From the NCBI GenBank assembly GCA_965225945.1, contig CBDDBZ010000006.1:1-33223 (forward strand): a stretch of DNA of 33,223 bases. Reading direction: 5' to 3'. Position numbers and translations under genes: made by a program. Below, one piece after another: positions 2,292 to 28,566 of the stretch (the stretch's first letter is position 1; every line of letters begins with the position of its first letter). This DNA is from Alphaproteobacteria bacterium (GTDB lineage: Bacteria; Pseudomonadota; Alphaproteobacteria; GCA-2731375). Under the pieces are notes generated by a model, which searched no databases, was not told the DNA's origin, and worked only from the letters and a program-made list of their open reading frames with translations.

Positions 2292-2561
2292 CTACGCCAT
2301 TTCGGCCCGCGCGCCCCGATCGAAGACGCGCGCGAGCAGCACCATCGGCGCCGCCACAATCACGGCCACGGCGTTCAGCACGCCGCGGATCGGCCACCGC
2401 GATCCGGCGTTGGTGGCCAGCGAGCCGAGGTCATGAAGGGCGGAGAATAGTCGAGCCACCGCACCCGCGAAAGCCCCGATGGGGCCGATGGTGGCGCGGC
2501 GGCCTTGGAGGCCCGAGGGGGTCGGAAGCGTGGTGCCGCGCGCGCCGAGCCCGCTCGCCAT
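2292..2561 (-). CDS. Possible small hypothetical membrane protein
   Basis: ORF of about 89 aa with a hydrophobic C-terminal segment (VLNAVAVIVAAPMVLLARVF), co-oriented just upstream of the ligase. No RBS or family recognised. Confidence 0.3.
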   Translation of the reverse strand: MASGLGARGTTLPTPSGLQGRRATIGPIGAFAGAVARLFSALHDLGSLATNAGSRWPIRGVLNAVAVIVAAPMVLLARVFDRGARAEMA

Positions 2562-2799
2562 GGCGGCTGGAATCAGCGGCAATTCGGGGAATCACGACCC
2601 GCACAACCCCTAAACGCTCGTCAACCCGAGTCGGGGCCCTGGGGCCGCAAGGCCCCACCATTGGCCAAATGGGATGCTATCGGCTAGATTGGACCCGATC
2701 TGTTTTTGCCAATGCGTCCCAACTCGCCGAGGGAGGTACGCGCCACGTTGCCTGGCAGCGTTCGCGGCGCTGGGTCGTCGTCGCCATGAGCGGTCGCTG

Positions 2800-3069
2800 C
2801 TAGTGGATGAAATCCAACATATGGTACCCCTACGACGGTTTCCCGAGCTCGTCCGGAAAGGCGCCTGGTGCGCCGTGATGCTGGCGCATCACAAGCGCCG
2901 GGCAACGCGTCCGGCGGGCTCGGGAAGCCGCCCTTCGGGTCCCATATCCTGGCTTCTCGGGGCGTCGGGCACCCTTGACGATGTGCCAGCATCGCCGGCG
3001 GGCGCCCTCCTGCCGAGAAACCAGGATATGGGATCGTAGGGGTACCATATGTTGGATTTCATCCACTAG
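2800..3069. mobile_element. 270-bp non-autonomous palindromic element (MITE-like, family A)
   Basis: Perfect 36-bp terminal inverted repeats CTAGTGGATGAAATCCAACATATGGTACCCCTACGA (2800-2835 and 3034-3069) with CTAG at both ends. Two internal hairpins (~2836-2930 and ~2940-3033). No transposase. Confidence 0.88.
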
Positions 3070-3082
3070 GGGGGTATGGCGT

Positions 3083-3895
3083 ATGAAGGCGGTTATGTTG
3101 GCGGCCGGAATCGGTGCCCGGCTCGGACTTTCGGCCACGGAACATCCACCGAAGGTCTTGCTGCGCTTCGGCGGCAAATCGTTGCTGCAATTCCATATCG
3201 AAATCCTCCGGCGACACGGCATCGACGAGTTGGTACTCGGCGTCGGCTATCGCCACCTCGAGATCGAGCGGGAGATCGCTGCCCTGGGCGCTCAGGATTA
3301 CGTGCGAACCGTGTTCAACGAGGATTATGGCGAGGGCAACATCGTCACCTTGTGGGCCCTGCGCGACGAATTGTGTTGCGCTGGCCCGGTCCTCCTGATG
3401 GACGCCGACGTTCTCTATGACGAAGGGCTGGTGGAGCGTCTCGTCACCTCACGCCACCAGAACTGCCTGCTCCTCGATCGCGCCTTCGAGCCGGGCGATG
3501 AGCCTGTCAAGGTATGTGTCCGCGCTGGCGAGATCGTCGAATTTCGCAAATGGCTGAGCGCCACGTTCGATTTTTGCGGTGAATCGGTGGGCTTGTTCAA
3601 GCTGTCGGGCGAGGTGGCCGAGAAGATCATCGCTCAGAGCGAGCTCTATCTACGTCAAGGCCGCCGCAACGAGCCTTACGAGGAGGTGATCCGCGATGTT
3701 CTGTTGACCTCGCCACCCGGCACCTTCGCTTTCGAGGACATCACCGGCATGGCTTGGATCGAGATCGATTTCGCCGCCGACATCGAGCGCGCCAATGCCG
3801 AGGTCCTGCCGCGCATTCTGAAAGCGGAGGGCGAGCGCCGCGCCGCGATGGTGATCGAGGGCGAGATGAACCGAGGCGTGGCACAAGGGCGATGA
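3083..3895 (+). CDS. Phosphocholine cytidylyltransferase-like NTP transferase (LicC family)
   Basis: MKAVMLAAGIGARLG..PPKVLLRFGGKSLL nucleotide-binding motif, MDADVLY, WIEIDFAADIERA. AGGGGG RBS before ATG 3083. Its stop overlaps the next start (ATGA). Confidence 0.85.
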   Translation: MKAVMLAAGIGARLGLSATEHPPKVLLRFGGKSLLQFHIEILRRHGIDELVLGVGYRHLEIEREIAALGAQDYVRTVFNEDYGEGNIVTLWALRDELCCAGPVLLMDADVLYDEGLVERLVTSRHQNCLLLDRAFEPGDEPVKVCVRAGEIVEFRKWLSATFDFCGESVGLFKLSGEVAEKIIAQSELYLRQGRRNEPYEEVIRDVLLTSPPGTFAFEDITGMAWIEIDFAADIERANAEVLPRILKAEGERRAAMVIEGEMNRGVAQGR

Positions 3896-5199
3896 CCGGG
3901 ATCGATGCTTCACCGACCACCCAGGTGATCGCCGCGCTGATCGCCGCCGCGCTTTATGCGGCGACCTATCTATCCTTCGTCCGCCTCTTGCGATTTCCCC
4001 GGAACTGGCATACGCCCAGTGTGCTGGAAGCCCTGGTGACGGGGCTTCTGGCTGCCCTCATGGTGGCGCAGGTGTCGCTGTCGTCCCATGGCCTCGACCG
4101 CCCCGCCCTGGCCGTCTCGGCCGGTTTCCTCGTCGTCTTGCTTTACATCGTCGCGGCCCCCGCGCTCGCCTTCCGACCGGGCTCGCGGCCGGTCGAATTC
4201 TTGGCCAAGCACGGCGACTATGCCGGGCTGTGGTTGCTCGGCCCCGCCCTCGTTGCCGCCTTGGCCATCCCGAACAGCAAGCTCCAGGCGGTCCTGGCGA
4301 CCGCCATGGCGATCGAGGCGACGTGGTTCCTTCGCCTGCGGTGGGCTGGCCGGCGGCGTCGGCTCCAGCGCTTGAACGAGCACGACCTGTCGGTCCTGAA
4401 GACCCAGGCGAAGGGCGATCTCGAGGCTTTCCGACGGTGCCACGCCATCCGCGAACTGGTGCTCTCGGAGGGCGCCGTCGGCTGGAGAGGTTGTGGCAAA
4501 ACGACGCCGCCCTGCCCGTTCAATCTCTACGTCAACCGTCTCGGCCTCAACACCGCGCCGTGCTGCCGCGAGCATATGAAGGAAGTGAGCCATTACGTCG
4601 CCGCCTGCCTGACCGATATGGGGGTCGTGCACTGGCTGGAGGGGGGCAGTCTGCTCGGGGCCGTGCGGGAGGGGGGGACGCTGCTCGATTGGGAGGACGA
4701 CATCGACATGTCGGTTCTGCTCGACGGCGAGGTGACCTGGGAGCGCTTGGCGGCCGGGCTCGCCGAACGCGGCGCGCGGGATGGTTACGTCGTCGACCTT
4801 TTCGAGAAACAAGGCTTCGTCTCGATCTCCTTCGATCCACCGCAGCGATGGCCCTTCCGGTGGGAGCGCAATCGCCTGCGCGGCGAAATTCGGGTCGACC
4901 TCGCGATTTACCGCCGCGCGATCAGCCACGGTCGAGCCGTGCTCGAAAGGCGGAGCTACAAGGGCGCCATGCCGCGCACCGAGAGCGGTGGTTATGGCCT
5001 GGCGCGGGAGATCGTCCTGCCAACCTCGACGGTCCCTTTCCTCGGCCGCGATTTTGCCTGCCCGAACCAAACCGAGGCGTATTTGGCCGTGTTGTACGGC
5101 GACTTCAAGAAGATCAAGTATACCTATGTCGATAAGGGGCCAGCGAAAGCGCGCGCCCGCATCGATACCGTCGGGAATCCGTCGGTACCGATCCGGTGA
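3892..5199 (+). CDS. LicD/fukutin-family phosphotransferase with N-terminal multi-TM domain and FKRP-like Cys4 motif
   Basis: WLEGGSLLGAVR...DWEDDID LicD/FKRP signature; GC-x6-C...PCC cysteine cluster; C-terminal F.G..F.CPNQTEAYLAVLYG; about five hydrophobic segments in the first ~145 aa. Confidence 0.85.
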   Translation: MTGIDASPTTQVIAALIAAALYAATYLSFVRLLRFPRNWHTPSVLEALVTGLLAALMVAQVSLSSHGLDRPALAVSAGFLVVLLYIVAAPALAFRPGSRPVEFLAKHGDYAGLWLLGPALVAALAIPNSKLQAVLATAMAIEATWFLRLRWAGRRRRLQRLNEHDLSVLKTQAKGDLEAFRRCHAIRELVLSEGAVGWRGCGKTTPPCPFNLYVNRLGLNTAPCCREHMKEVSHYVAACLTDMGVVHWLEGGSLLGAVREGGTLLDWEDDIDMSVLLDGEVTWERLAAGLAERGARDGYVVDLFEKQGFVSISFDPPQRWPFRWERNRLRGEIRVDLAIYRRAISHGRAVLERRSYKGAMPRTESGGYGLAREIVLPTSTVPFLGRDFACPNQTEAYLAVLYGDFKKIKYTYVDKGPAKARARIDTVGNPSVPIR

Positions 5200-5498
5200 G
5201 GGCTGGTTTGAGATTTTTGCCGTGAGTTCGGAATTCGGCGATCCTCGACGTGGACGCCTCGATGCTGTCCACGAAGCCGACTCGGGGCAGGATCGCCGAT
5301 ACTGCCCGAAGGAAATCCGGACGCGAGGGAAGGCGGAGGCCCGCGCCGCCCTCGAGACCTGCCTTTATATTAGATGATCGTAACTGGAGTTTCGCGACCC
5401 CTTCGAGACGTTGAGTGGCTGCACCAAGGGCCCGCGCGAGCCTGCCCATGCCACCCGCGCGGAGGCATTCCGCCGCGTGCGCATTTCCGCCGAGCTTG

Positions 5499-5533
5499 AA
5501 AAAGAAAGCCCCAGAAACCAAAGTTTCCGGGGC
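5499..5533 (-). terminator. Rho-independent terminator of the putative sRNA
   Basis: Minus strand GCCCCGGAAAC-TTTG-GTTTCTGGGGC followed by TTTCTTTTT. Confidence 0.8.
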
Positions 5534-5612
5534 AAGTCTAACAGGGAGGCTAAACGTCTCGATGACGTTTTCGACCGGGTCGAGCAACTTGGGGGGCGTG
5601 CATCGACCCGAT
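5499..5612 (-). ncRNA. Probable trans-acting sRNA, suhB/MmgR (alpha-r8)-like
   Basis: On the minus strand: stem-loop 5576-5610 with a C-rich loop, stem-loop 5552-5570, unpaired anti-SD CCUCCCUGUUAGACUU, then terminator hairpin 5508-5533 and a U-tract. The 5' end is uncertain. Confidence 0.55.
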
Positions 5613-5654
5613 CCGAGCGGACCCGGCTGGCGCCAGGCGCCGCAAAAAACGGAA

Positions 5655-5669
5655 TATTGCAGTGCAACA
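5655..5669 (-). promoter_or_regulatory. Possible PhaR/AniA-type operator (TGTTGCACTGCAATA)
   Basis: Palindromic TTGCA-C-TGCAA fits the TGC-N3-GCA motif described for alphaproteobacterial PhaR/AniA. It lies upstream of the sRNA-like structure. Confidence 0.45.
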
Positions 5670-5728
5670 CCCGTTCACCCCCTATTTATGCCGCCGCGGG
5701 CTTCGGAACCACCCACGAAAAGGCAAGG

Positions 5729-5753
5729 GAGCCATGCGTCAGACGCATGGCTC
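5729..5753 (-). terminator. Hairpin downstream of the LysR gene, likely terminator
   Basis: GAGCCATGCGTC-A-GACGCATGGCTC inverted repeat just past the stop; the minus strand continues CCTTGCCTTTT. Confidence 0.5.
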
Positions 5754-5759
5754 ACGTCA

Positions 5760-6650
5760 TCAAAACCGCCAATTTCGCCCTTCCGCGACAATAAATTCTC
5801 GAAATACGGCGATACGCTTCATGTTGCGCAATTCCTCCGGGTAACAGAAGAAGGCGTCGAAGCTCGGGCCCTGAATTTCGGGGAGGACGCGGACGATCCT
5901 CTCGTCGCCATGCACCATGTAGTCGGGCAGCGCGGCGATGCCGAGGCCCGACTCGGTGGCCAGCAACAGCCCGTAGATGTTGTTGACCTGCAACTTGGGC
6001 TTGCGCCGGTCCTGTCCGTTCAGATCCATGAACAGCGGCCAATTGACGTTTTTGAGCGTCGGCGGCGCCAGATCGCCATAGACGATCAGATCGTGCCTGT
6101 CGATCTCGGAAAATTGCTCGGGCGTGCCGCGCTGGGCGAGATAGTCGGGCGAGGCATAGAGGTGCGTGTGCACCGTGAAGAGGCGGAGTTTGATCAAGTC
6201 CGGCTGCGTCGGCATGCTCATGCGGATGGCGACGTCCGCTTCCCGCATGCCGAGGTCGAGCTCCCGGTCCTTGCAGATGATCGAGAGCTCGATTCCGGGA
6301 AACTTTTCGATGAAGCGGGCGATTCGCGGCGTCAGCCAGGTCGAGCCGAAGCCGACCGTGGTGGTCACGCGCAACGCGCCGCTCGGCCTGGCCTTGGTGT
6401 CGCTCAGGACGGTCTCGACGGTGGCGAGCTGGCCGAACACGTCGTGCACCGTCCTGAACAGGAGGTCGCCCTGCTCCGTCAGCAGCAGGCCGCGGGCATG
6501 GCGGTGGAAGAGCTGCGTCTTCAGATCCTCCTCCAGCCCGTGGATCTGCCGGCTGACCGCCGACTGGCTCAAATGAAGCTCGTCGCCGGCATGCGTGAAG
6601 CTCCCGGCCTGTGCGACCGCGTGGAAGGTTCTGAGCTTGTCCCAATCCAT
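5760..6650 (-). CDS. LysR-family regulator, LsrB/VtlR-like
   Basis: MDWDKLRTFHAVAQAGSFTHAGDELHLSQSAVSRQI HTH and the C-terminus YPEELRNMKRIAVFREF. Position directly downstream of trxB is as known for lsrB/vtlR. Confidence 0.9.
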   Translation of the reverse strand: MDWDKLRTFHAVAQAGSFTHAGDELHLSQSAVSRQIHGLEEDLKTQLFHRHARGLLLTEQGDLLFRTVHDVFGQLATVETVLSDTKARPSGALRVTTTVGFGSTWLTPRIARFIEKFPGIELSIICKDRELDLGMREADVAIRMSMPTQPDLIKLRLFTVHTHLYASPDYLAQRGTPEQFSEIDRHDLIVYGDLAPPTLKNVNWPLFMDLNGQDRRKPKLQVNNIYGLLLATESGLGIAALPDYMVHGDERIVRVLPEIQGPSFDAFFCYPEELRNMKRIAVFREFIVAEGRNWRF

Positions 6651-6745: not shown

Positions 6746-7711
6746 TTACTCCGCGGCCTCGGCCTCGACCGCCTGCTCGGCCAAAAAGCGCTCAGCCTCC
6801 AGCGCCGCCATGCAGCCGGTGCCGGCGGCGGTGACCGCTTGGCGGTAAATGTGGTCTTGAACGTCGCCGGCGGCGAAGACGCCGGGAATGGCCGTCGCCG
6901 TCGAATCGGCCGCCGTCGCCAGATAGCCTTCGCCGTCCATCTCCAACTGGCCCCGGAACAGCCCGGTCTCGGGACGGTGGCCGATGGCGATGAAGACGCC
7001 ATCTACGCTGAGCTCGCGACGCTCCCCCGTCTTGACGCCTTGCAGCCGCACGCCCGTCACCGCGGCCGGCGCGCCCTCGCCCAGCACCTCGTCCAGCACG
7101 TGATCCCAGAGGATCTCAACCTTCTCGTTCACAAACAGGCGCTTTTGCAGGATGTCCTCGGCCCTGAGCCGGTCGCGGCGGTGGACGAGCGTCACCTTGG
7201 AGGCGAAGTTGGTGAGATAGAGCGCCTCCTCGGCCGCGGTGTTGCCGCCGCCGATCACGGCGACGGGTTTGTCGCGATAGAAGAAGCCGTCGCAGGTGGC
7301 GCAGGCCGAAACGCCGAAGCCCTGCAGCCTCTGCTCCGATTCCAGGCCCAGCCACTTGGCCTGAGCGCCGGTGGAGATGATCAGCGCTTCGCCCGTATAG
7401 CCCTCGCCGGTGTCGCCGAGGCAGCGGAAGGGACGCTTCGAGAGATCGACCTCGACGATGATATCTTGATGGAATCGGGTGCCGACGTTCTCGGCCTGCC
7501 GCTCCATCTGTTCCATCAACCACGGGCCCTGCACCACGTCGGCGAAGCCGGGATAGTTCTCGACGTCGGTGGTGATGGTCATCTGCCCGCCCGGCTGCAG
7601 GCCGTGCACCAGCATCGGCTCCAGGCCGGCGCGCGCGGCGTAGATCGCCGCCGTCAACCCGGCCGGTCCGGAGCCCAGGATCAATACGCGGGAATGATGA
7701 TGCTGGGCCAT
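6746..7711 (-). CDS. trxB: Thioredoxin-disulfide reductase
   Basis: ILGSGPAGLTAAIYAARA, VENYPGF, GVSACATCDGFF (CxxC), GGGNTA, GVFAAGDV, RQAVTAAGTGCMAAL. GGGGAGG RBS before ATG 7711. Confidence 0.97.
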   Translation of the reverse strand: MAQHHHSRVLILGSGPAGLTAAIYAARAGLEPMLVHGLQPGGQMTITTDVENYPGFADVVQGPWLMEQMERQAENVGTRFHQDIIVEVDLSKRPFRCLGDTGEGYTGEALIISTGAQAKWLGLESEQRLQGFGVSACATCDGFFYRDKPVAVIGGGNTAAEEALYLTNFASKVTLVHRRDRLRAEDILQKRLFVNEKVEILWDHVLDEVLGEGAPAAVTGVRLQGVKTGERRELSVDGVFIAIGHRPETGLFRGQLEMDGEGYLATAADSTATAIPGVFAAGDVQDHIYRQAVTAAGTGCMAALEAERFLAEQAVEAEAAE

Positions 7712-7831
7712 GCTGCCTCCCCTGGTCGATCGCGAAGGAAAAAACGATTGCGCCGCCGACCTGCCGTCTGGCGTGGTGGCATCCCCGTTATTTAGAATTG
7801 CCACGCCGGCGCCGCAAGGGGATGTTGTCCG

Positions 7832-7852
7832 CTAGTGGATTTCATCCACTAG
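7832..7852. repeat. 21-bp palindrome CTAGTGGAT-TTC-ATCCACTAG (collapsed family A)
   Basis: Equals the fused outer ends of the 2800-3069 element. Lies in the divergent trxB/dehydratase intergenic region. Confidence 0.85.
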
Positions 7853-7884
7853 TCACCCGCGAGCGGGCCGAGGGAGGAAACGAG

Positions 7885-9609
<1,725 letters not shown>

Positions 9610-10394: not shown

Positions 10395-10420
10395 GGGATG
10401 AAATACAACATATGGTACCC
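10391..10420 (+). repeat. Solo terminal repeat of family A element
   Basis: CTAGGGGATGAAATACAACATATGGTACCC is 28/30 identical to 2800-2829. Its TAG is the SDR stop codon. Confidence 0.85.
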
Positions 10421-22329: not shown

Positions 22330-23546
22330 CGTCGCGACGGCGAGCCCATCCCAACTTTGGCGTTGGCGCGGCCTTTTCGCACGTTTGCACCGATGCTAAC
22401 CAGGGTATCGCGAGCTTGGCTCACGGAGATTTTTAGGTAAATTAGGATCTAACGTGGGTTTCATCAGATGGCGCATCAGAATTCGGACGATGATTTCACA
22501 ACCACAAATTAGGCACGCGGTTCGAATCGCGGCGGCGATCGTGGCCTGCGCGTACCTCACCAGTTGCACCGAGATCTTCGACGAATTTTCGACCTGGCCC
22601 GAATTACCGCCACCGACTCCGGTATCGAGCGAGGAAGAGGCCACCGCTCCCGGCAAGGGCCCCCGCGATAGCGCCGCCGTCGCCGCGGTCCCGCTCGAGC
22701 AGCCCGCCTCGGCGGAGATTCACCAGGGCACGGGCAAGTTCGTCAAGCCGCCGAGACCACGCGCCGTCACCTCGGACGACGGCGACATCACCTTGAATTT
22801 CGCCGATGCCAACATCCGCGAGGTCGTGCGCGTCGTTCTCGGCGACATCCTGGGCCTGAACTACGTCATCGATCCGGCGGTTCAGGGCACGATCACGATC
22901 CAGACCAGCCGGCCGCTGAGCGAGGAGGATCTGCTGCCGACGCTGGAAAGCTTGCTCGCGCTCACCGGCGCGGCGCTGGTGAGCGAGGGACCGGACTTCA
23001 AGGTGGTGCCGCTCGCCAACGCGCCCCGCGAAACGCGCGATTTCGGCCTTGGTACGCAGCGATTGCCGCGAGGGCGTGGCTACGGCGTGCAAGTGGTGCC
23101 ACTGGAGTATGTTTCGGCGGTCGAAATGCAAAAGGTGCTGGCGCCGGTGGCCTCCGACAGCAACATCCTGAGCGTGGATTCGCGCCGCAACCTCCTCATC
23201 CTCGGCGGCTCGCACGCGGAACTCGATAACCTGCTCGAGCTGATCTACATGTTCGACGTCGATTGGCTGGAAGGCATGTCGTTCGGTTATTTCCCGCTCG
23301 CCCACGCCGAGGTCAAGACCCTGGTCGACGAGTTGCGCCAGATCGTGGTCCAGGGCGAGGACAAGGCCGCGGCCGGACTCCTGCGTTTCGTGCCGATCGA
23401 GCGGCTGAACGCGCTGATCGCGATTTCGCCGCGGCCGGGGCAAATCGAGCGGGTCCGGACCTGGATCGAGCGGCTCGATCGCAGCGGCGATCAGGACACC
23501 AGCCGTCTCTTCGTCTATCGGAATTTTCTAGTTTAAGGTCGGCCTT

Positions 23547-24662: not shown

Positions 24663-26113
24663 GGGGATGTCCCGGGCTCTGTTGAAAAGCTGAAGTAGGC
24701 GTCGTCCGCCTGGAGCCGCTAGGCTCTGGGTGCTGATTCCATCAAGGAGAACGACGCCATGACCAAGACTACACGCAACGACCGTTCCTCGGAACCATCC
24801 TGTCGGCTCTTGCCATCGATGCCGGAGGCCTTCGACGATCTGCGCATGAGCGTCGATCGCTTCTGCCTTTTGGCGGGCCTCGAGTCTTTGAACGAGATGA
24901 TGTCGGCGGACGCGGAAGCCTTGTGCGGTTCGCGCCACGCCCGCTCGGGCGAGCGCAAGGGCCATCGATGGGGCACGACCCGGAGCGAGATCGCCTACCA
25001 CGGCGGCAAAGTGAAGGTCGAGCGCCCTCGGGTGCGGGACTTCGCGGGTCGGGAGATGAGCCTGCCGAGTTGGGAGCTGCTGTCGGAACCCGAACTCTTG
25101 CAAGCCTGGGCGATGAATCTGATGGTGATCAACGTCTCGACCCGCAAGTATGCCCGCGCGGTGCGCCTGCCGGACGATGCGGGCGGCGATCTGCCGGCGG
25201 CATCGGGTGACGCAACCTCGAAGTCGGCGGTCTCGCGCCGTTTCGTGGCGTTGACGCGAAGCAAGCTGAAGGCCTGGCTGGCGAGCCCGCTCGACGATCT
25301 CGATCTCGTGGTGCTCCAGATCGACGGGCTCCATGTCGGCGATCACCTGATGGTGGCGGCGATCGGCATCGACACCGGCGGCGCGAAGCACGTGCTGGGC
25401 CTGGCCGAGGGCGCGACGGAGAACGCGGCCACGGTGCAAGCCATGCTCGACAACCTGATCGAGCGCGGTCTCGATCCCGAACGGCCTCGGCTCTACATCG
25501 TCGACGGCGCCAAGGCGCTCTCGAAGGCGATCCGGCGGACCTTCGGGCGGGCGGCGGCCCTCCAGCGCTGCCAGGTGCACAAGGGGCGCAACATCACGGA
25601 CCGGCTGGACGAGAGCCTCCATGCCGGCGTCAGGAAGGTCTTGCGGCAGGCCTGGCAGCAGGACGACGCGGCCAAGGCCGAACGGCTCTTGCGCAACCTC
25701 GCCCGCCGTCTGGAGCATGACGCACCCGGCGTCTCGGGCTCGATCCTGGAGGGCCTGGACGAGATCCTGACCGTGATCCGGCTCGGCCTCCCGCCGCAAC
25801 TTCGACGCTCGCTGGCTTGCACCAACGCCATCGAGAACGCGATCGGCACCGTCCGGACGGTGCAGCGGAACGTCAAGCGCTGGCGCAACGCCGAGATGGC
25901 GCTGCGTTGGACCGCCGCCGGCCTCTTGGAGGCGCAAAAGACCTTCCGCCGCCTCAAGGCCTACCGCCAGCTCCCCGTCCTTGACGCCGCCCTGCGGGAG
26001 GCGGTGAGAAAGGCCGGAGCAAAGTCCGTCATTGAAGACATCGAGGTGGCCGCGTAGCCTCTCGATCAGACGATGCCTATCTCGCACTTTTCAACATTGG
26101 GCGGGACATCGCC
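24663..26113 (+). mobile_element. IS256-family insertion sequence nested in the IS1595 element
   Basis: Imperfect TIRs GGGGATGTCCCGGGCTCTGTTGAAAAG and rc GGCGATGTCCCGCCCAATGTTGAAAAG flank a single transposase. No target duplication is visible. Confidence 0.9.
24759..26057 (+). CDS. IS256-family (Mutator-type) DDE transposase
   Basis: RPRVR, VSTRKY, SKSAVSR, LQIDG, G.K.VLGL.EGATEN, IVDGAKAL.KAI, QRCQVHK.RN, CTNAIEN. AAGGAG RBS. Confidence 0.93.
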   Translation: MTKTTRNDRSSEPSCRLLPSMPEAFDDLRMSVDRFCLLAGLESLNEMMSADAEALCGSRHARSGERKGHRWGTTRSEIAYHGGKVKVERPRVRDFAGREMSLPSWELLSEPELLQAWAMNLMVINVSTRKYARAVRLPDDAGGDLPAASGDATSKSAVSRRFVALTRSKLKAWLASPLDDLDLVVLQIDGLHVGDHLMVAAIGIDTGGAKHVLGLAEGATENAATVQAMLDNLIERGLDPERPRLYIVDGAKALSKAIRRTFGRAAALQRCQVHKGRNITDRLDESLHAGVRKVLRQAWQQDDAAKAERLLRNLARRLEHDAPGVSGSILEGLDEILTVIRLGLPPQLRRSLACTNAIENAIGTVRTVQRNVKRWRNAEMALRWTAAGLLEAQKTFRRLKAYRQLPVLDAALREAVRKAGAKSVIEDIEVAA

Positions 26114-26200: not shown

Positions 26201-27100
26201 TCATTTGGCAACTCCCAATCCACGGTTGATAGTTAGTGCGAAGGCGTCGAAGGGATCGGCCTTGCGGAGGTTGTAGCGGTAGCAGAACTCATCGACATAC
26301 CGTTGCAGGTGGCGGCGGCTGACGCTGTGGAACTGGCCGAACATGCCGCGCTTCAACAGAGCCCAAAACCCCTCGATGGTGTTTGTGTGAATGTCGCCGT
26401 CCACGTACCAGTCAGCGTGCTTGATGACGGCGTGCGGCAGCACCTTCGCCATGCCGAGGTATGCTTTGTACTCGTCCGTTATCAGGCTCGCCTTTGATGT
26501 GTCGATGCGATCCCGCACAAAGGCACGCATGTGCCTGCCCTTCATCTTGTCCTTAGCAACGGCCTTTGCCGTGACATTGCCGCCACGTTCGACCGCGCCA
26601 ATCACTGGAGCCTTCTTGGTGCCGCGTCCAGGCTTGTGCTTGCCGCCATCGCCATCGCCATCGCCATCGCCCTTAGTGCCCTTGCGCGGCTTTCCGCCGA
26701 CATAGGTTTCGTCCATCTCGATGATGCCGGTAAGCAGGCTTCGCTGTTCGGCTTGGGTCATAGCCTTACGAATCTGCATCGTGATCCTCCAAGCCGTGTT
26801 CTTATTGACGGAGAGATCACGGGATAGTTGAAGCGCTGACAGGCCCTTCTTGGCGTTCAGCATCAACATGACCGCTAGGAACCACTTTTGCAGCGGCATA
26901 TGCGTGTGGTGAAAGATCGTGCCTACCGTAACGCTAAACGAGGTCTTGCAGTCGTAGCAGCGATGACGGTGCTGGTTGCGTGCGGTATTGAGCGACCCGC
27001 AGTATGGGCAACTCGGCTTGTCGCCCCAGCGAGCCGCCTCAAGATGAGCGATGCAATCTTGTTGTGTGGGGAACCGCTCGAAAACCTGTATGATGTTCAT
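26201..27100 (-). CDS. IS1595-family transposase
   Basis: Zn ribbon CPYCG...RCYDC, FSVTVGTIF, KKGLSALQL, EMDETYVGG, LITDEYKAY, HTNTIEGFWALLKRG..G.FH.VS..HLQRYVDEF..RYN. Confidence 0.95.
   Translation of the reverse strand: MNIIQVFERFPTQQDCIAHLEAARWGDKPSCPYCGSLNTARNQHRHRCYDCKTSFSVTVGTIFHHTHMPLQKWFLAVMLMLNAKKGLSALQLSRDLSVNKNTAWRITMQIRKAMTQAEQRSLLTGIIEMDETYVGGKPRKGTKGDGDGDGDGGKHKPGRGTKKAPVIGAVERGGNVTAKAVAKDKMKGRHMRAFVRDRIDTSKASLITDEYKAYLGMAKVLPHAVIKHADWYVDGDIHTNTIEGFWALLKRGMFGQFHSVSRRHLQRYVDEFCYRYNLRKADPFDAFALTINRGLGVAK
26645..26671 (+). repeat. (GCCATC)4 hexamer repeat inside the transposase (Gly-Asp run)
   Basis: gccatc x4 plus gcc; encodes GDGDGDGDG on the minus strand. Confidence 0.85.
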
Positions 27101-27145
27101 GGCATTCCGCTTCCGTTCGAGCCGTATCAATCTCTAGACAAGATC

Positions 27146-27174: not shown

Positions 27175-27375
27175 GACCTTAAACTAGGAAATTCCGTCGT
27201 CTATTACGTACAGAACAAGCGCGCGGTCGACCTGGCCGATACGCTGACCAAGATCTTCGTCGATTCCGGTGCCGCGCGGAGCAAACCCGAGACCAGCCTC
27301 CGCCCCGGCCAACGCCCGGTGGAGCTGACTTCCGCCGGGGCCCGGCGCGAGCCACGTCCGGCGCCCGAGAGACGA

Positions 27376-27519
27376 CGGCGGACCGCCCAACCCGCCGCCG
27401 GCGGGCCCCAGGCGGGGCGCGAGGCGGGTCGGCCGCCCGCGAGATCACGGCAGACCGCGCAACCCGCCGCCCGCGGGGCCCAGGCGGGGCGCGAGACGGG
27501 GCCGGCGCCCGAACGGCCC
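27376..27519 (+). repeat. 72-bp imperfect tandem duplication within gspD
   Basis: RRTAQPAAGGPQAGREAGRPPARS / RQTAQPAARGAQAGRETGPAPERP, with a partial third unit upstream. Confidence 0.8.
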
Positions 27520-28566
27520 CCAAGAGATGCTTCCGTGCCCCGGACCGCGAGCGCGGGCGAGGCCCAGATCTTCACCATCGCCGAAGGCCGCGAGGTTCGC
27601 ATCATCGCCGACGATTCCAACAACGCGTTGATCGTCCTGGCGACGCCGGTGGACTACCGCATGATCGAGCAGACGCTCCGCAAGCTCGACCTGGTACCGC
27701 TCCAGGTGTTGATCGAGGGCACCGTCGCCGAGGTGGCGCTCAGGGGCGAACTGCGCTACGGCCTGCAATGGTTCTTCAACTCGGGCAACAGCTCGGCCAC
27801 CTTGAGCGCCGTGCCGCTGGCCACGCCGGCGCAATTCTTCCCCGGGTTCTCCTATCTCTTCGCCACGAACGACGTACGCGTGGTGCTGAACGCGCTCGAC
27901 GACATCTCCGACCTCAACATGATCTCCTCGCCGACGCTCATGGTCCTGGACAACCAGACCGCCTCGCTCCAGGTCGGCGACACGGTGCCGATACTCACCG
28001 AGCAAGCGACGACGGACGCAGGCATCATCGTCAATAGCATCCAGCAGCAGGACACGGGCGTCACGCTGACGGTGACGCCCCGGGTCAACGCCGGTGGTCT
28101 GGTGAACCTGGAGATTACCCTGGAGGTGAGCGACGCGGTGCCGACCGTGACCTCCGGCCTCAATTCGCCGACCATCCGGCAGCGCAAGATCCAGACCACC
28201 GTCGCCGTGCAGTCGGGCGAGACGGTGGCACTGGGCGGACTGATCCGCGACGACAAGGCAAAGACCAAGTCCGGCATTCCGATTCTGCACGAATTGCCGA
28301 TCCTCGGCAGCCTGTTCGGCGAGACGGTCGATTCCAAGGAGCGCACCGAGCTGCTGGTCGTGCTGACGCCGCGCGTCATTCGTGGCATGCAGCAGGCCCG
28401 CAATGTGACCCGGGAGCTGCGCAAGCGGCTCCGCTCGGTGAGCCCGATCGACCGCCGAATCGGCAGATGATCCCAACCGCCCCGGCGGACGGGGTATGAT
28501 CCTCGAAGCGGCCGGTTGGGGGCGAAGTGGGTTCGCCCGCGAACGCCGGCAGGGGTGAAAGGCGCC

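Follow-up and report, generated by a model that had tools for sequence, protein, structure and literature searches.

The subject of this study is a pair of overlapping genes at positions 3083 to 5199 of a 33,223-nucleotide stretch of DNA from an alphaproteobacterium (GenBank assembly GCA_965225945.1, contig CBDDBZ010000006.1; this whole stretch is referred to below as the window). Our results support the two genes as a coupled module for the activation and transfer of a head group, comprised of a LicC-type nucleoside triphosphate (NTP) transferase and a LicD transferase whose catalytic domain resembles that of the human enzyme FKRP. From sequence comparison and gene neighbourhoods it appears, at a probability of about 0.5, that the pair makes cytidine monophosphate (CMP)-activated 2-aminoethylphosphonate (AEP), CMP-AEP, and passes its phosphonyl head group, on the cytoplasmic side, to an acceptor embedded in the membrane.

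Gene 1 (3083..3895, + strand; ATG at 3083, TGA at 3893-3895) encodes a LicC/PntC-type cytidylyltransferase of 270 residues, P0001, and gene 2 (3892..5199, + strand; ATG at 3892, TGA at 5197-5199) encodes P0002, a membrane-anchored LicD transferase of FKRP zinc-finger type with 435 residues. The start codon of gene 2 and the stop codon of gene 1 share the sequence ATGA (3892..3895, + strand), and among the 28 related loci where the positions of both genes could be assigned, 26 show this four-base overlap; at one locus (L015) the predicted start position is no start codon. Given that homologues align from residue 1 and that the overlap is kept in 26/28 loci, we prefer 3892 to the upstream TTG at 3754 as the start of P0002. 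P0001 scored 44.8 bits against the Pfam model NTP_transf_3 (cut-off 27) and also matched NTP_transferase, and P0002 passed the gathering score of Pfam LicD (PF04991) with 37.6 bits against 22.6, so that the coupled pair described in an initial annotation of this DNA stands as proposed. The strings quoted there, AIRELVLSEGAVGWRGCGKTTPPC, NTAPCCREHMKEVSHYVAACLTDMGVVHWLEGGSLLGAVR and DWEDDID, are present as written in the translation of P0002. The LicD match is confined to residues 244-275, around GGSLLGAVR, and covers profile positions 5-35 of 227; in an NCBIfam scan neither protein exceeded any curated cut-off. P0002 is the sole LicD-family match in the whole genome.

A scan of positions 2300-5800 for sigma-70 promoters returned 0 sites, and terminator-like sites in the same interval were not above chance expectation. 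Contigs from two metatranscriptome-labelled runs match parts of both genes with 0 differences, and one RNA-library contig of 250 nt crosses the gene junction (3857-4106) and is identical to the window; since such libraries may contain DNA, we take these contigs as weak evidence of expression.

Likeness of the transferase to FKRP

When P0002 was compared by phmmer with all PDB chains, human FKRP (6kaj) was the only convincing match (E 5.3e-13), the remaining sequence matches having E values of 0.021 or worse, and the alignment with FKRP spans the W-GC-x6-C, PCC, WLEGGSLLGA-R and DxD motifs. Matches of residues 4-53 to proteorhodopsins (E 0.02-0.3) were rejected as chance similarity of transmembrane (TM) helices. 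An AlphaFold2 model of P0002 built from an alignment of 50 sequences was confident, with a predicted local distance difference test score (pLDDT) of 92.7 and a predicted TM-score (pTM) of 0.90, and a structure search with this model, which had been suggested as a check, placed FKRP first by two methods. In Foldseek FKRP had an E value of 6.4e-12 and the runner-up, LnuA, 6.3e-5; in VIA-align FKRP had a Z score of 21.2, with a root-mean-square deviation of 2.8 Å over 194 residues (model residues 165-422 against FKRP residues 177-491), and the runner-up, again LnuA, had Z 12.9. The fold matches those of FKRP, LnuA and ANT(2''), consistent with a nucleotidyltransferase (NTase) fold. The resemblance to FKRP, which the initial annotation had put forward, is thus real far beyond chance in both sequence and fold.

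The resemblance extends to individual residues, for which human FKRP numbering was carried onto the alignment via lizard FKRP. A predicted zinc-finger loop, W198-x2-C201-x6-C208-x15-C224-C225 (4483..4566, + strand), aligns with that of FKRP such that C201, C208, C224 and C225 coincide with Cys289, Cys296, Cys317 and Cys318, described as the zinc ligands in the available text on the FKRP structure (PMC6965139). All four cysteines, along with D270 and D272, are invariant in 50/50 aligned sequences, an alignment whose distant members were picked among sequences showing the motif. A search of 5.8 billion proteins, made with no motif-based selection, gave the same picture, the pattern W-x2-C-x6-C-x15-CC and the catalytic motif being present in 120/120 close relatives among the matches listed. 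The four-cysteine loop of FKRP type, the conservation of which had been named as a point to check, is therefore invariant in the relatives and lies inside the domain that superposes on FKRP.

The NTase core (4642..4707, + strand) comprises GGSLLGAVR, which holds the hG[GS] motif and of which GGSLLG forms residues 251-256, followed by W-E268-D-D270-I-D272. E268, D270 and D272 align with FKRP Asp360, Asp362 and Asp364, and Asp336 (4897..4899, + strand), the third catalytic acid, aligns with FKRP Asp416; its position is occupied by Asp in 32/32 bacterial, 9/9 protist and 8/9 animal rows, with one gap. The hG[GS] motif, the DxD pair and the third acid are all invariant or nearly so.

While P0002 has the NTase-fold domain, the C4 loop, the hG[GS] motif and the catalytic acids in common with human FKRP (PDB 6KAJ-6KAN; PMC6965139), it departs from it in other features. 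Arg295 of FKRP, an essential residue that binds the acceptor phosphate, corresponds to Pro207 in P0002, and this position is Pro in 29/32 bacterial and 8/9 protist rows as opposed to Arg in 9/9 animal rows. His435 and Gln437 of the FKRP ribitol loop are replaced by Glu364 and Gly366, which are Glu and Gly in 26/32 and 29/32 of the bacterial rows, respectively. Where FKRP has a type II anchor and a stem domain that serves in dimerisation and acceptor recognition, P0002 has a five-helix membrane domain, and the part of its model that superposes on FKRP starts near residue 162-165. The zinc loop is five residues shorter between the second cysteine and the CC pair (15 residues against 20), and the partner enzyme is PntC/LicC-like here and an ISPD-type CDP-ribitol synthase for FKRP (CDP, cytidine diphosphate); the IspD model matches P0001 over residues 3-54 only, at E 0.002. 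In our tree, animal FKRP falls outside the clade that unites the bacterial and protist sequences.

Given that Arg295, the ribitol loop, the stem domain and the ISPD-type partner are all missing, we regard P0002 as an FKRP-type zinc-finger LicD and not as an FKRP orthologue. The description of the protein as a bacterial relative of FKRP accordingly holds for the fold, the zinc cysteines and the catalytic acids, but not for FKRP function, to which Pro207, Glu364/Gly366, the membrane domain and the non-ISPD partner are opposed. According to the available text of Kuwabara et al. 2020, conservation of the zinc-finger loop and of the ribitol loop is restricted to FKRP orthologues (PMC6965139). Judging from our alignment, the predicted zinc-finger loop is invariant in the bacterial family and in its protist homologues, whereas the ribitol loop is not.

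The N-terminal five-helix membrane domain (residues 1-155; 3892..4356, + strand) was delineated from the model helices, hydropathy and loop charges. The helices of the model span residues 8-32, 44-62, 70-92, 111-125 and 129-153, in a block with pLDDT mostly of 90-98, and all but the helix at 129-153 exceed a Kyte-Doolittle hydropathy of 1.4; the earlier count of about five N-terminal TM helices is thus supported by the model, and by hydropathy for four. Positive charges lie in alternate loops and an RRRR stretch follows the last helix, a positive-inside pattern that puts the catalytic domain on the cytoplasmic side, the compartment in which CMP and CDP donors occur. The membrane domain is conserved across the bacterial family and in some protist homologues, and the representative matches P0175 and P0194 align from residues 14 and 19 of the P0002 query. 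When residues 1-160, which hold the membrane domain, were searched against the ESM Atlas, no usable match was returned. Because this conserved polytopic domain is packed on the catalytic domain in the model (pTM 0.90), and because no glycosyltransferase family recurs in the neighbourhoods of the 55 loci of our genome collection that carry the family, the acceptor is probably embedded in the membrane.

The head-group donor

The best match of P0001 among PDB chains was PntC Tde1415 (6pd1; E 3.9e-17, query residues 2-256 against chain residues 4-247), the crystallised CMP-AEP-forming PntC in the available text of Rice et al. 2019 (PMC6697681). The preference of Tde-PntC and Ari-PntC for AEP, relative to phosphoethanolamine and phosphocholine, amounts to orders of magnitude. 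The second was LicC (1jyk; E 3.4e-11), and this match speaks for a serious rival, namely a Lic-type module in which CDP-choline or CDP-ethanolamine would be made and the phospho-base moved to a lipid or lipid-linked glycan; we consider this rather unlikely, and note that LicC aligns over the 109 N-terminal residues only (1-109) as against 255 for PntC. The residues of the substrate site point in both directions. In the alignment to 6pd1, E200 of P0001 falls at Glu196 of Tde-PntC and D107 at Glu104, the two residues that contact the AEP amine; LicC has a smaller Asp at the Glu104 site, proposed to make room for choline, according to the same source (PMC6697681). Asp107 of P0001 is thus the LicC-like state at a site where Tde-PntC has Glu, which tells against AEP and for a phospho-base. 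P0002, for its part, in addition to its Pfam LicD match also matches the Mf1 cholinephosphotransferase model, weakly (E 0.0019, far below cut-off).

A further reading, that the pair is an analogue of FKRP and teichoic-acid enzymes which would make CDP-ribitol, CDP-glycerol or CDP-inositol and move a polyol phosphate to a glycan or lipid, draws on the fact that the closest solved structure is FKRP, a ribitol-5-phosphate transferase, and on the LicD-family CpsC, which is described as polymerising polyol phosphate in the available text of PMC11666461. It draws also on the best NCBIfam match of P0001, the inositol-1-phosphate cytidylyltransferase (IPCT) half of IPCT/DIPPS (E 5e-19), although at 68.6 bits this lies far below the cut-off of 580, and the PDB matches to IPCT (E 4.7e-6 and 2.6e-5) are much weaker than that to PntC. 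At one locus, L036, the nearby genes include a TagD-like cytidylyltransferase and another LicD of small size, but no polyol-phosphate dehydrogenase or synthase was found among the families recurring beside the 55 loci, the open reading frames (ORFs) of which were all clustered, or in the 12 loci from which 114 ORFs were scanned with Pfam. As the FKRP residues Arg295, His435 and Gln437 are replaced in nearly all bacterial and protist members, and the IspD match stops at residue 54 of P0001, we hold transfer of a polyol phosphate to be very unlikely.

The neighbourhood survey, which had been proposed at the outset, found the AEP pathway beside the pair in 4/55 loci and a homologue of phosphonate monoester hydrolase (PMH) in 9/55. 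A homologue of P0001 lies directly upstream of the transferase in 35/55 loci. Downstream of the pair, and on its strand, L027, L029, L031 and L054 have a PMH homologue, then AEP-pyruvate transaminase (522.8 bits in L029, NCBIfam cut-off 296) and a PepM::NTP-transferase fusion, and in the two loci that are long enough, L027 and L029, phosphonopyruvate decarboxylase (Ppd) comes next (441 bits in L029, cut-off 312.5). This placement of the AEP pathway in the same string of genes also stands against a phosphocholine or phosphoethanolamine module. The PMH homologue is directly downstream of the transferase in L009, L014, L017, L024, L027, L029, L031, L036 and L054, loci that are spread over three or more distinct branches of the family tree; in L027, for example, it is found at 7320-8888. 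It is closely similar to the phosphonate monoester hydrolases 2vqr (E 3e-149) and 2w8s (E 3e-144). A Cys-x-Pro-x-Arg motif is visible in the PMH homologue of L036. The PDB describes PMH enzymes as multifunctional. Phosphodiesters are also cleaved by PMH enzymes, which are known to be promiscuous, and the recurrent adjacency hints at their physiological context.

The genome of the window itself encodes a PepM::NTP-transferase fusion (contig C5, 395 bits, cut-off 319.55), Ppd (419.8 bits, cut-off 312.5), a homologue of AEP transaminase (64% identity) and a PMH orthologue (C39:173250-174803, 80% identity). The fusion gene (9953-11614 of L064, G000:C5:4547-24000) is apart from ppd and the AEP transaminase gene, which are on contigs C38 and C29, and it is followed on the opposite strand by an ORF of 245 residues (12269-13006 of L064) that is transposase-like by eye.

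PepM was sought in the 48 genomes to which 50 of the loci belong, L051-L055 being left out. It scored above the cut-off in 13/48 genomes holding the family and in 26/299 genomes of the class sample without it, and both genomes of the class sample with the family also have PepM; as related genomes are not independent, these frequencies are given without a test statistic. The PepM-positive genomes are scattered over several separate branches of the family tree, and the roughly threefold higher frequency of PepM in family-holding genomes is another point against a phospho-base donor.

The adjacent NTP-transferase gene and the PepM::NTP fusion show a relation of their own. Among the 48 genomes, PepM was present for 8/15 loci that lack a full adjacent NTP gene where the upstream sequence is present, and for 5/33 loci that have one; loci without the adjacent gene are thus more often in genomes with the fusion. 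In five loci only the last 37-84 residues of a cytidylyltransferase are recognisable upstream (L006:363-479, L007:3467-3589, L010:3123-3263, L036:5744-5989 and L037:181-291), and these C-terminal pieces look like decayed remnants; in 3/5 of their genomes a PepM::NTP-transferase fusion is encoded at another site. The available text of Li and Horsman 2022 describes AEP clusters that contain a PntC fused to Ppm besides a second PntC (PMC8942020).

We therefore favour AEP as the donor, on the grounds of the PntC best match, the four loci with the AEP pathway, the nine with PMH, and the PepM, Ppd and transaminase of the genome. The pathway would run as follows. The cytoplasmic LicC/PntC-type enzyme would condense cytidine triphosphate with a small amino-alkyl phosphorus compound, most likely 2-aminoethylphosphonate supplied by the genome's own PepM, Ppd and AEP transaminase, to give CMP-AEP. 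P0002, held in the inner membrane by its five helices, would then transfer the phosphonyl head group from CMP-AEP to a hydroxyl of a membrane-embedded lipid, glycolipid or polyprenyl-linked glycan with release of CMP, using the NTase-fold acids E268, D270, D272 and D336 and a divalent metal, and the active site would be covered, as in FKRP, by the C4 zinc-finger loop. The compact module for synthesis and transfer of a CDP-alcohol that had been envisaged in the initial annotation is consequently kept with respect to coupled activation and transfer, and revised with respect to the donor, which is more likely a CMP-phosphonate; AEP had been among the candidates listed there.

Several observations weigh against transfer of AEP. 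The adjacency to the AEP cluster is limited to one clade of 11 rows in the family tree and may therefore reflect one or two events. The AEP genes of the window genome are on three other contigs, its AEP transaminase could be catabolic, and no phosphonate gene is among the 25 ORFs scanned in the window. PepM did not reach the cut-off in 35/48 genomes holding the family, a count in which four genomes score 268-280 bits and the completeness of the metagenome-assembled genomes (MAGs) is not accounted for, and which also favours a phospho-base. The PMH adjacency is compatible with a phosphate head group as well, given that these enzymes are multifunctional and cleave phosphodiesters. In L049 (1406-3309 and 4387-5775) the gene directly upstream of the transferase encodes a dioxygenase of TauD/gamma-butyrobetaine dioxygenase type, which scored 303 bits against the model of TmpA (2-trimethylaminoethylphosphonate dioxygenase; cut-off 400), and two S-adenosylmethionine-dependent methyltransferases are near the transferase both there and in L001 (2564-4290). 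The dioxygenase-like gene and the methyltransferases hint at trimethylammonium head groups, again in keeping with a phosphocholine-type donor, and the head group may be N-methylated in the lineages of L001 and L049. It is on account of the many genomes without PepM, the window without a phosphonate gene, the LicC-like Asp107 and the neighbours in L049 that we put transfer of AEP no higher than about 0.5.

Genes expected of a Lic-type module were looked for directly. Neither a licA choline kinase nor a licB permease is among the 25 ORFs scanned in the window, as the initial annotation had observed for the adjacent genes, or among the families recurring beside the 55 loci. One match to the choline-kinase family is found on contig C26 of the genome (54.4 bits), but the Choline_kinase Pfam model also matches in 7/14 control genomes, and we therefore give this match little weight. 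In three other loci (L019:2836-4269, L022 and L023, - strand), the genomes of which have no detected PepM, the transferase has a group II decarboxylase dependent on pyridoxal 5'-phosphate as its near downstream neighbour. The model of diaminobutyrate decarboxylase matched this enzyme best, at a score far under the cut-off, and the enzyme may represent another route to an amino-alkyl head group.

Distribution, descent and mobility

A word-indexed search returned 746 relatives of P0002, those listed being 70-100% identical and named 'LicD family protein' or 'hypothetical protein', and an exhaustive search of representatives gave 787 matches at E values up to 0.001. The 55 loci all come from MAGs or uncultured 'Bacterium' assemblies, mostly labelled Alpha- or Gammaproteobacteria, and from seawater, deep water, sediment and vents. 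In an even sample of the class the transferase gene was present in 1/300 other genomes, and in 0/2 genomes of the same taxonomic family. Host mimicry, raised as an option in the initial annotation, was not borne out, the relatives being MAGs labelled seawater, sediment, vents and sponges with no context of host-associated pathogens. Runs X9-X13, labelled sponge metagenome, contain exact pieces of window positions 2700-5400, and several contigs of 100-325 nt in X9 are identical to this stretch, from which it follows that the organism or a near-identical strain was present in sponge-associated samples.

A tree of the catalytic domain with 40 rows recovered the bacterial clade with a Shimodaira-Hasegawa-like approximate likelihood ratio test (SH-aLRT) support of 98. 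In the search of representatives the nearest relatives beyond this clade are eukaryotic (Lenisia, Pygsuia, Diplonema and Thecamonas), and on the tree protists, together with unnamed sequences, neighbour it within a grouping supported at 99. The other side of the tree holds animal FKRP, algal-like sequences and a group of bacterial NTP-transferase::LicD fusions. As the tree is unrooted, we state no direction of transfer between bacteria and eukaryotes. By eye, P0235, P0244 and P0262 read as single polypeptides of 553-576 residues with an N-terminal NTP-transferase-like region and a LicD domain carrying C-x6-C...PPCC, and they may, from their sequences, be a fused form of the two-gene module; one cluster member of this type is labelled as a Terriglobales MAG.

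Upstream of the pair is an element of 270 bp resembling a miniature inverted-repeat transposable element (MITE) (2800..3069), with perfect 36-nt terminal inverted repeats (arms 2800-2835 and 3034-3069, 100% complementary); 13 bp lie between it and the start codon of gene 1. With up to 3 mismatches allowed, the genome has 34 copies of the 36-mer, 17 per strand, most of them arranged in inverted pairs with a spacing of about 235-385 bp, and the reversed control returned 0 copies. A lone repeat end of 23 nt with one mismatch is found at 10397-10419, overlapping the start of a folB-like ORF at 10398. The G+C content at third codon positions is 0.75-0.79 for the pair and 0.84-0.91 for its neighbours, and the genes that flank the pair in the window are not conserved beside the transferase gene in other loci. 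Given this low value, the unconserved flanks, the occurrence in 1/300 genomes of the class sample and the adjacent MITE-like element, the pair looks like a mobile accessory module that was horizontally acquired, an option that had been raised from the window alone and that these data support. The family as a whole is rare and mobile, and the bacteria that carry it are uncultured marine Alpha- and Gammaproteobacteria.

One unrelated feature of the window may be recorded here. A type II secretion secretin appears split into an N0/Secretin_N part (22454-23536) and a Secretin domain (27319-28470), between which lie a Mutator-family transposase (24759-26057, + strand) and an IS1595-type transposase (26201-27130, - strand) in DNA of lower G+C content, 0.57-0.59.

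Comparison with known systems

The protist FKRP-like proteins (Thecamonas trahens AMSG_04464 and transcripts of Pygsuia, Lenisia and Diplonema) are the closest counterparts outside bacteria. They have the same zinc-loop length, with LG-x-NTPPCC, and Pro at the position of Arg295 as in the bacterial family, and for some unnamed sequences that group with them (P0175 and P0194) the alignment already starts in the membrane domain. The protist proteins form the sister group of the bacterial clade and differ from it in being eukaryotic and uncharacterised, with 25-38% identity and no operon partner.

This relationship allows a wider proposal, which we put forward as speculative and rather unlikely: that the family is the missing phosphonyl transferase that puts AEP, or an N-methylated or hydroxylated derivative, on the lipids and lipid-linked glycans of marine proteobacteria, and that its zinc-finger architecture is ancestral to, or was exchanged with, the eukaryotic FKRP lineage. 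If so, the TM-anchored homologues of Thecamonas, Pygsuia, Lenisia and Diplonema would be makers of protist phosphonolipids and phosphonoglycans, and the animal FKRP lineage would be derived, its switch to CDP-ribitol having come with the acquisition of Arg295, a ribitol loop and a stem domain. Apart from this proposal, conservation of the zinc loop without that of the ribitol loop distinguishes a structural module, the zinc loop, from the features that determine the substrate (Arg295 and the ribitol loop), and FKRP, a muscular-dystrophy enzyme, gains microbial relatives that may be easier to study. Phosphonates make up a large share of marine dissolved organic phosphorus, and a defined two-gene candidate, for which the model is confident and the catalytic and zinc residues are clear, opens the phosphonate transfer step to direct tests.

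With the Lic1 system (LicA, LicB, LicC and LicD) and with Mf1 of Mycoplasma fermentans, the pair would share cytidylyl activation of a small zwitterionic head group followed by transfer, through a LicD-family enzyme, to a surface glycan or glycolipid. It differs from Lic1 by the predicted zinc finger and the five-TM domain of P0002, in that no kinase or permease gene adjoins it and in that P0002 matches 31/227 positions of the Pfam LicD profile. The multi-domain LicD representatives P0246, P0251 and P0270 are set apart from P0002 in that the Cys motif is missing there.

The closest system is the Pnt pathway (PntC Tde1415 and Ari1348; PMC6697681), in which, as here, a LicC-like cytidylyltransferase is beside a LicD-family transferase according to the available text, and related loci of the present family carry ppm, ppd and AEP transaminase along with a second PntC fused to Ppm. 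That text proposes the Pnt pathway by analogy with Lic, mentions LicD-like genes near ppm once, without characterising them, and states that the tailoring steps after formation of the C-P bond 'remain enigmatic' (Rice et al. 2019; PMC6697681). The claim that the pair is an undescribed system was consequently too strong, as the logic of phosphonate decoration by PntC and a LicD-like enzyme had already been proposed, although the transferase is uncharacterised in the available text. A literature search of full text, with subscription journals and supplements outside its scope, found no bacterial zinc-finger LicD and no characterised LicD-type phosphonate transferase. The present pair departs from the Pnt pathway in that its transferase is polytopic with an FKRP-type zinc finger, in that it lies apart from ppm in the window, and in that P0001 has Asp at the site of Glu104 in Tde-PntC. 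What is new, then, is the combination of Lic/Pnt logic with an FKRP-type, membrane-anchored transferase, in a module that is real, conserved and well-defined and for which AEP is the probable donor.

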